From contig CAQBPW010000043.1 of NCBI GenBank assembly GCA_948762045.1, positions 1-31,985 on the forward strand: a stretch of DNA of 31,985 bases. Reading direction: 5' to 3'. The first letter of the stretch is position 1; every line of letters starts with the position of its first letter. This document shows positions 9,182 through 9,428 of the stretch, piece after piece. Position numbers and translations under genes: made by a program. The stretch comes from an uncultured Lachnospiraceae bacterium. Lineage in GTDB: Bacteria; Bacillota; Clostridia; Lachnospirales; Lachnospiraceae. The notes below the pieces were generated by a model. It did not search any database and was not told the DNA's origin. It saw nothing but the letters and a program-made list of their open reading frames with translations.

Positions 9182-9428
9182 CAGCCAGAGTTTGGAACCT
9201 CTTTCTTGCAGCTGTGACTTCGGAGGAAAGTTAGAAGCTCTTAGACTTCTGTCGATCCACTAGGATTTTTGCCATTCTCGAATGGCAAAAAAGGGGTGTG
9301 TTTAGCCCGCTGCACGGGCGAATTGCACCCCGTTCCGTCCGGTTGGATACACCCAGACTCAGAAGTCTTAGAGCTTCTTCTTTCCGAAGAGCGGAACAGC
9401 TGCAAGAAAGAAGTTCCAAACTCTAGCG
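9182..9428 (+). repeat. Family-1 structured palindromic repeat, copy 1c
   Basis: arms cagccagagtttggaacctctttcttgcagctgtgacttcggaggaaagttagaagctcttagacttctg / cagaagtcttagagcttcttctttccgaagagcggaacagctgcaagaaagaagttccaaactctagcg; conserved core. Confidence 0.85.

Follow-up and report, generated by a model that had tools for sequence, protein, structure and literature searches.

The intergenic repeat at 9184-9427 of a 31,985-nt stretch of DNA from an uncultured Lachnospiraceae bacterium (GenBank contig CAQBPW010000043.1; the whole stretch is referred to as the window) raises the question whether it is a module that ends the messages of the neighbouring genes, as an earlier, sequence-only reading had proposed, or a structured element in its own right. 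The repeat is best read as a variant of the known TwoAYGGAY motif (Rfam family RF01731) without the AYGGAY loops. A repeat finder applied to the whole window delimited the unit as 244 nt with 32-nt ends that are 94% complementary (copy 1c). In total, the window contains five copies of this intergenic repeat of about 245 bases, four of them full and one cut by the window edge, and copy 1c lies at the place given in the sequence-only reading. RF01731 scores stem from scans of small windows (400 nt):

1-147, plus strand: copy 1a, of which only the 3' part is present, the rest being cut off by the window edge (repeat finder and alignment of the five copies).
4546-4792, plus strand: copy 1b (repeat finder; RF01731 match at 4580-4757, plus strand, 66.4 bits).
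9184-9427, plus strand, which is the selected (sense) strand: copy 1c (RF01731 match at 9218-9392, plus strand, 63.7 bits, E = 1.8e-10).
15084-15330, minus strand: copy 1d, inverted, its sense strand (minus) being the direction of the genes (RF01731 match at 15295-15120, minus strand, 68.2 bits).
19321-19565, plus strand: copy 1e (repeat finder and alignment; Rfam gave no match at E <= 1).

Outside the window, the core pattern of the repeat matched at least 117 stretches, all of them in one metagenome-assembled genome (MAG) from the gut, uncultured Lachnospiraceae bacterium MGBC128194. By BLAST, about 180 full or partial copies were counted in these 117 loci, many at contig ends. The repeat is rare in a metagenome collection (five loci); it gave no match in viral contigs, and the idea that phages carry it was dropped. 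Homologues of the window proteins carry Lachnospiraceae names as well. A contig of a related species (L128) contains variants of about 340 nt at 1560-1925, 5355-5720, and 5785-6140.

Every copy folds into a rod composed of a long closing stem (P1), conserved internal loops, a 3-bp stem (P2), and two hairpins. For the region 9178-9434, folding compared to shuffled sequence yielded z = -13.7 on the plus strand and z = -13.4 on the minus strand. P1 comprises 25-32 bp that differ in sequence among the copies with complementarity kept, and the middle stems add about 30 bp to this outer stem; about 95% of the positions are Watson-Crick paired. The parts of copy 1c, all of them on the plus strand, are as follows:

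9176-9181: A6 run directly 5' of P1; on the minus strand a U-tract right after the closing stem.
9184-9215: P1 5' arm, pairing with 9396-9427; the base GCCAGAG is conserved, the inner 20 nt or so are variable yet complementary.
9216-9217: the 5' half (GA) of an asymmetric, invariant internal loop whose other half is AGCG-GA at 9390-9395; near-invariant columns.
9218-9251: 5' strand of the middle stems, pairing with 9360-9389; conserved U·U or bulge positions in CUUAG/CUUAG contexts.
9255-9258: AUCC, pairing with GGAU at 9345-9348; changes are mostly to G·U on the plus strand.
9263-9265: GGA, the 5' side of P2, with UCC at 9334-9336 as partner; in line with the Rfam model, P2 closes the junction of the two hairpins.
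9266-9292: hairpin 1, U5-GCCAUU-CUCG-AAUGGC-A6; the sequence and length of the tip differ among copies.
9293-9331: hairpin 2, GGGGUG..GCCCG-CUGCA-CGGGC..CACCCC; its internal loop UUUA/GAAU is conserved, and two G·U pairs are fixed.
9360-9389: 3' strand of the middle stems (alignment of 58 copies).
9396-9427: P1 3' arm, pairing with 9184-9215.

The two fixed pairs of hairpin 2 are UG and GU at alignment positions 143/169 and 144/168. The element termini are conserved (CAGCCAGAG...CTCTGGCGTCC), the conserved part of the ends being only the 7-bp base GCCAGAG/CUCUGGC, and GGAAAA[GA]ACAGCC is conserved at the 5' edge of P1 in the long- and medium-stem subtypes (see below). The asymmetric loop beside P1 (CUGU-GA-CUUCGG opposite CCGAAG-AGCG-GA-ACAG), with putative tandem G·A pairs, resembles a kink-turn. 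In the 58 aligned copies and in L128, the hairpin tips are variable and the internal loops are fixed.

Covariation was assessed for the 62 pairs of the RNAalifold structure of these 58 copies, with slid pairing partners and 500 shuffles as controls. Compensatory double changes are present in 22 of the 62 pairs. Paired cells amount to 98.1%, compared to 36-46% with slid partners, double-change cells number 295 compared to 7-35, and not a single one of the 500 shuffles matched the observed pairing score. The middle stem (helix 2) contributes 24 pairs, 11 of which show double changes (98.8% of the cells paired), and one pair of the AUCC/GGAU helix (helix 3) occurs as CG in 28 and as UG in 20 copies. 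P2 is paired throughout (GGA/UCC, 100%) with three compensatory cells, and reads AGA/UCU and GAA/UUC in the L128 copies. The second UCC, which RNAalifold had chosen as partner in P2, was replaced by the first one, which covaries. In agreement with the sequence-only reading, the small hairpin 1 covaries, with UA in 45 and CG in 13 of the 58 copies at alignment pair 100/107, UA in 31 and CG in 13 at 101/106, and CG in 43, GC in 8, and UA in 2 at 97/110. Likewise, the GCCCG/CGGGC stem was found constant with a variable loop (CTGCA, CTGTA, CAGCA, ATGCA, and others). The nested stem of hairpin 2 (helices 6 and 7) is invariant in the MAG set and covaries in L128 to GGGGCG/CGCCCC and GGAGCG/CGCUCC; in these copies hairpin 2 gains about 80 nt at its tip, and hairpin 1 is extended and differs in sequence. 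This comparison shows that the fold is maintained by selection.

The same conclusion can be drawn at a single locus. Copy 1c is present at the same place in eight contigs of the same species, which represent two haplotypes that differ by four single-nucleotide polymorphisms (SNPs) in the 244-nt element and by nine in the 91-nt flank (9093-9183). Three of the four element SNPs fall in P1, where pairing is kept or repaired: 9201 C>A and 9410 G>T affect pairing partners and constitute a compensatory change within the species, and 9412 A>G mends a C·A mismatch with 9199. Individual copies are thereby shown to be under purifying selection. Two other readings were considered and rejected. If the P1 arms were copy-specific guides, they would match external targets, but their 13-mers turned up again only within further copies from the same subfamily, and the diversity of the arms is therefore attributed to descent with compensation. 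A coding region on the minus strand behind GGAGGA is broken in frame by 1-nt indels in the T/A-runs and by stems of 25 versus 32 bp; moreover, the open reading frames (ORFs) called inside the copies are not the same from copy to copy.

Run over all 32 kb of the window in its default gathering mode, the Rfam scan reported only a thiamine pyrophosphate (TPP) riboswitch and tRNA-Leu, and none of the five copies. With small windows, three of the four full copies passed the RF01731 gathering score of 43 bits, each by at least 20 bits and each on its sense strand only, and no match was obtained on the reverse strand of copy 1c. Since the default scan is blind to copies that score in small windows, routine annotation will miss this repeat family. 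TwoAYGGAY was described with two terminal AYGGAY loops and a P1 that is often very long (Weinberg et al. 2010, PMC2864571), in many cases of more than 20 nearly perfect base pairs (supplement of PMC2864571). It was found in human gut samples, Clostridia, and gamma-proteobacteria and is considered probably an RNA and not cis-regulatory (PMC2864571); later on, tandem G·A pairs in a stem were reported and a role as CsrA sponge was proposed (PMC4333381). Shared with the window repeat are the very long P1, the short P2 around two adjacent hairpins, the habitat in gut Clostridiales, and several copies per genome, as in the Psychromonas seeds. The junction of the seed, GCA-AG-[hairpin]-AAG-[hairpin]-CUGG-UGC-GU, or in generalised form xxx-[hairpin]-AAG-[hairpin]-NGG-Uyy-GU, has its counterpart in GGA-[hairpin]-AG-[hairpin]-GU-UCC-GU of the window copies. 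In contrast to TwoAYGGAY, the window repeat is conserved in its internal loops, whereas the hairpin tips are hypervariable and can grow by about 80 nt; it also adds an outer stem of 25-32 bp and the kink-turn-like loop, which lie outside the Rfam model. An invariant GA stands opposite an invariant GA beside P1 (9216-9217, 9394-9395), its correspondence to the reported tandem G·A site being uncertain. In the part of the 2010 alignment that was compared, the core sequence of the window variant was not found. The Psychromonas seeds of TwoAYGGAY have repeated flanks, comparable to the tandem repeats beside copies 1b and 1e (see below). A link between the Drum motif and this family is not supported by PMC5737381.

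With regard to the strand, 88 of 95 copies have their more stable fold in Rfam sense (mean difference 10.6 kcal/mol, Wilcoxon p = 6e-16), and this advantage is seen in all three subtypes and in the three L128 copies. Wobble pairs in the predicted helices are similarly uneven, with 446 G·U versus 55 A·C; three fixed G·U pairs make up 282 of the 446, which leaves 164 versus 55, and according to the per-pair table the ratio is 68 to 6 in the middle stem and 75 to 38 in the outer stem. Because the wobble asymmetry and the folding energy both favour Rfam sense, the pairing is read as selected on a single strand of this polarity. Template switching in a palindrome would produce matching arms as well, but symmetrically on both strands and with loss of the asymmetric loops, which again argues for selection on a single strand. 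The Rfam-sense strand is the plus strand in case of copies 1a, 1b, 1c, and 1e and thus antisense to the flanking genes. Copy 1d, which the sequence-only reading had regarded as the antisense one, is on the contrary the only copy of the window whose selected strand runs with the neighbouring genes. For the selected form, RNA is more likely than single-stranded DNA.

On the anti-Rfam strand, the helix GGGGUG/CACCCC is followed by a tract of 6-8 U, and the closing stem is followed by UGUUUUUU; both modules are conserved. On the Rfam strand, no hairpin followed by a U-tract was found. Since the U-tract modules occur on the anti-Rfam strand only, the unit appears to be polar. A terminator scan of the window reported neither module because the loops of both exceed 8 nt. 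The minus-strand core quoted in the sequence-only reading is the exact reverse complement of 9266-9331, and its nested stem with U-tract is correct as far as the inner modules are concerned, but the closure of the whole 244 nt by the long stem and the Rfam match on the opposite strand had been missed. A conventional candidate terminator lies next to copy 1c:

9133-9154, minus strand: intrinsic-terminator-like hairpin with T-run between copy 1c and the next gene, outside the repeat.

It had further been claimed that the copies always lie 3' of minus-strand genes. All called genes near the copies (ORFs of at least 100 aa) are indeed on the minus strand, but each copy is equally located 5' of the next gene, and the orientation of 4 to 1 in the window is not significant. 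The apparent rule arises because the window genes all run in one direction. In the related MAG MGBC128194, the neighbouring gene on the Rfam-3' side of single copies has its 3' end towards the element in 41 cases (median gap 43 nt) and is directed away from it in 40 (median gap 160 nt), so that the rule does not hold genome-wide. Most genes of Firmicutes are co-oriented with replication; therefore, the ratio of 41 to 40 also speaks against a strong replication-strand bias of the element.

All 45 adjacent pairs of copies (doublets) in the MAG are arranged head-to-head with their Rfam-5' ends facing each other, 40 of them without a gene in between and five with a small gene, and the same arrangement is found for the doublets of L128, L132, and L135. 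Genes flanking MAG doublets face the element in 20 cases and point away in 36. The minimal spacer of 73-81 nt is conserved and joins a copy of the long-stem to a copy of the short-stem subtype; where spacers are longer, unrelated tandem repeats or another repeat family account for the extra length. The two subtypes of the doublets differ in their flanks:

Long-stem subtype: 5' flank ..CTACCGGCAGGAAAAGA joined to CAGCC; 3' tail with 47% C.
Short-stem subtype: 5' flank ..ACGTAAATTGTGGRACAATA joined to CAGCC; 3' tail with 45% T.

The flank of the short-stem subtype fits an extended -10 element (TGnGACAAT; TATAAT in one copy), accompanied by the U-rich 3' tail. The window copies belong to the long- or medium-stem subtype, the short-stem subtype not being among them. 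A shift of the AYGGAY motif to the 5' leader of the long-stem subtype was discarded, since it applies to only 8 of 31 copies. Between spaced doublets lie ordinary genes (HAD hydrolase, esterase, helix-turn-helix proteins). No transposase was found between doublets and none recurred among the 533 ORFs near copies, the rest of the genome not having been searched. Target-site duplications or direct repeats were found neither beside single copies nor beside doublets, although the true ends are uncertain due to the subtype-specific flanks.

Since the copies are 72-93% identical to one another, the repeat family is old, with gains and losses from one species to another and stability within the species. 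At the locus of copy 1c, the related species retains only the outer 15 bp of P1 and the T-run (L128, 11787-11969), in a context of about 80% identical DNA and an FtsA-like protein of 94% identity. A deletion between two GTTCCG repeats could account for this remnant. The M32/QueH spacer of the related species contains an ordinary hairpin of 12 bp instead of the element, and its spacer between tRNA-Leu and zf-HC2 carries a doublet at the place of the single copy 1d of the window. After pncB and thiC, the element is missing from a more distant relative. Within the species, no insertion polymorphism was detected at the two loci checked.

Taking these observations together, we favour a structured, TwoAYGGAY-like repeat that is selected on its Rfam-sense strand and whose terminator-like behaviour is secondary, an explanation to which we would give an even chance. 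Its functional form would be an RNA of Rfam-sense polarity, which may act via binding of a protein at the conserved internal loops, i.e., the kink-turn-like GA/GA site and UUUA/GAAU, the GGA motifs in the loops of canonical TwoAYGGAY presumably not being the acting part in the window variant. Such a unit would let sense transcription pass and halt any transcription arriving from its 3' side, and head-to-head doublets would shield their spacer from both sides. The four window copies that are antisense to their flanking genes probably end the upstream mRNAs, as a by-product or as an insulating property, and not as what conserves the structure.

Several observations weigh against this explanation. 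Both AYGGAY terminal loops are absent, with UCUCGAA and GCUGCAC in their place as 7-nt inserts, and the copy at 19321 was not found with RF01731 at E <= 1; for these two reasons, the similarity to TwoAYGGAY could instead reflect convergence on a long-hairpin architecture. The copies share ancestry, and the numbers of pair changes given above are accordingly not numbers of independent events. G·T is the most tolerated mismatch in single-stranded DNA, and therefore the wobble asymmetry alone cannot separate RNA from single-stranded DNA. No sigma-70-like promoter was found upstream of the plus-strand copies of the window, and the combination of a plausible extended -10 element and a U-rich tail is confined to the short-stem subtype, of which the window has no copy. 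Finally, the conservation of the A-run and the U-run is what a terminator on the other strand would need.

The explanation that survives next best is selfish, non-autonomous DNA of the MITE or REPIN type, whose single-stranded hairpins would be recognised by a transposase encoded elsewhere and whose fold would have no RNA function. We regard this as possible but doubtful. It would account for more than 100 copies and for the contigs that break inside them, for doublets that are obligately inverted, combine two subtypes, and keep a spacer of 73-81 nt, as known from REPINs and BIMEs, for presence or absence between related species, and for conserved termini, and it is compatible with the toleration of G·T in single-stranded DNA. 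The closest analogue, bcr1, is mobile, too, and also shows compensatory changes (PMC3184786). However, neither the target-site duplications nor the transposase gene expected for such an element were found near the copies, the degree of identity among the copies indicates an old family without a recent burst, and the orthologous copy persists in the different strains with stronger conservation than its flanks. At least 60 pairs that covary over the full length and invariant asymmetric loops are also not required for the recognition of ends by a transposase. Strand-specific insertion of the IS200/IS605 type would in addition be expected to leave a bias in gene direction (taken as a proxy for replication), and none is seen.

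Less probable, and in our view unlikely, is the proposal of the sequence-only reading itself, i.e., a REP/BIME-like module of the 3' untranslated region that is selected to terminate or stabilise the upstream mRNA as an RNA of gene polarity, here the minus strand. It is supported by the two minus-strand modules of hairpin and U-tract, which are conserved across copies and species, and by the median gap of just 43 nt where the 3' end of a gene faces the element. In addition, L128 keeps the outer 15 bp of P1 together with the T-run after the ftsA-like gene, and four of the five window copies are oriented accordingly. Against it stand the orientation of 41 to 40 in the MAG and the preference of doublets for genes pointing away (36 to 20), as well as the asymmetry of wobble and energy, which favours the other strand. 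Termination at the inner module would prevent the full fold; a terminator role therefore leaves the upkeep of all 62 pairs unexplained. Copy 1c is followed by the conventional terminator (9154-9133), copy 1d is situated behind the terminator of tRNA-Leu (15634-15604) and before a promoter-like site (15048-15019), and the short-stem subtype lacks the U-tract. Of the REP/BIME comparison there remains a dispersed repeat with obligate inverted doublets, whereas the rule of placement at 3' ends fails; of the terminator, the two modules remain, whereas the pairing is selected on the opposite strand and one subtype does without the U-tract.

It is tempting to go further and to consider the unit a self-propagating, SINE-like gene for a structured RNA, in which each of more than 100 constrained copies would be transcribed in Rfam sense, spread via RNA or a strand-specific intermediate, and provide polar insulation, the doublets being divergent cassettes that drive or modulate the flanking genes. 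We consider this improbable; if true, it would provide a first functional handle on TwoAYGGAY, with the scaffold and not the loops as the unit of function. An sRNA (small RNA) acting as a sponge, in which GGA motifs sequester a CsrA homologue, as proposed for TwoAYGGAY (PMC4333381), is the least probable explanation: the element contains UAGGAU, UUGGAU, CGGAGGA, and GCGGAA, and a high copy number would fit a titrating RNA, but both AYGGAY loops, the proposed binding sites, are absent and the tips are free to vary, no GGA occurs in the terminal loops, the triplets being located in P2, in the AUCC/GGAU helices or in internal loops, and GGA is not enriched on the sense strand relative to the opposite one.

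Among dispersed repeats, bcr1, SPRITE, RUP, and REPIN/BIME are the closest analogues. REPs are about 35 nt long and tied to RAYT genes. With REP/BIME and REPIN the window repeat shares intergenic palindromic units in obligate inverted pairs, which are formed by two subtypes and joined by a short linker, and an effect on mRNA 3' ends is plausible; the window family differs by multi-helix units of about 245-340 nt, and no RAYT-like gene was seen near the copies. The repeat bcr1 of the Bacillus cereus group measures about 155 bp, has 5-bp direct repeats, is variable in its distribution among strains, and is transcribed (PMC3184786). It is likewise a dispersed intergenic repeat of Firmicutes with compensatory changes that uphold a structure, in case of bcr1 read at the RNA level. 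By contrast, no direct repeats were found for the window repeat and its loci are stable within the species. SPRITE, RUP, and BOX of Streptococcus pneumoniae and the Correia elements of Neisseria are small repeats with terminator-like or long-hairpin RNA that can alter the expression of flanking genes (PMC3184786). The window element is also a small interspersed repeat with such a fold, but these repeats possess sequence-conserved inverted ends of the MITE type or a simple terminator shape, whereas in the window repeat the long stem covaries in sequence from copy to copy and the terminator-like features belong to the strand that is not selected.

Since its description in 2010, TwoAYGGAY has remained an orphan motif. 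The relative described here is an old repeat of high copy number that keeps the scaffold without the AYGGAY loops, with pairing selected on one defined strand and an invariably head-to-head arrangement when paired. These elements break Lachnospiraceae assemblies, escape default Rfam annotation, and probably set the 3' ends of neighbouring mRNAs. Many public contigs (L136-L145, L001-L117) end inside or next to the element, which constitutes a systematic assembly breakpoint in these Lachnospiraceae MAGs.

Copy 1c is flanked by two minus-strand genes. The gene at 6654-9092 encodes an 812-aa protein with shoulder and repeat domains of the Major Vault Protein and with SPFH, and the gene at 9489-11276 a 595-aa FtsA/PilM/MreB-like protein. 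This gene pair is kept in close relatives and missing from L129. A tandem repeat of 3 x 66 nt (within 4358-4555) adjoins the Rfam-5' side of copy 1b, its third unit entering the element, and right after copy 1b and these repeats the TPP riboswitch (4187-4297, minus strand) is situated upstream of the thi operon. Another tandem repeat, 3 x 34 nt (19580-19682), is located directly past the 3' end of copy 1e. The stretches between stop codon and element (9428-9488, 4793-4828, 148-182, and 19566-19712) are C-rich on the plus strand and have G-runs on the mRNA strand. They resemble the tail of the long-stem subtype in the MAG, with 47% C and 5% G, and could serve the sense RNA as a rut-like tail or else form a G-tract of the mRNA.

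Two further repeat families occur in the window. A second palindromic family is represented at 30125-30264 and 29360-29495, with a core of about 99 nt in inverted orientation and 96% identity (29377-29475 versus 30148-30246). A long stem closes either copy, the two stems differing in sequence, and no Rfam match was obtained; the copy at 30125 ends in ACAGC...GCGTC, which resembles the termini of the TwoAYGGAY-like family. A third, short family (..ATTCGCAATCCGCTT..ACTTCCTTGATGAGGTTAAA) is found at 3847-3897, 6379-6459, 15371-15419 (inverted), 30000-30110, and 31934-31983. One of its copies adjoins copy 1d, and members of this family also occur inside the spacers of MAG doublets, e.g., in L020, L005, and L106.

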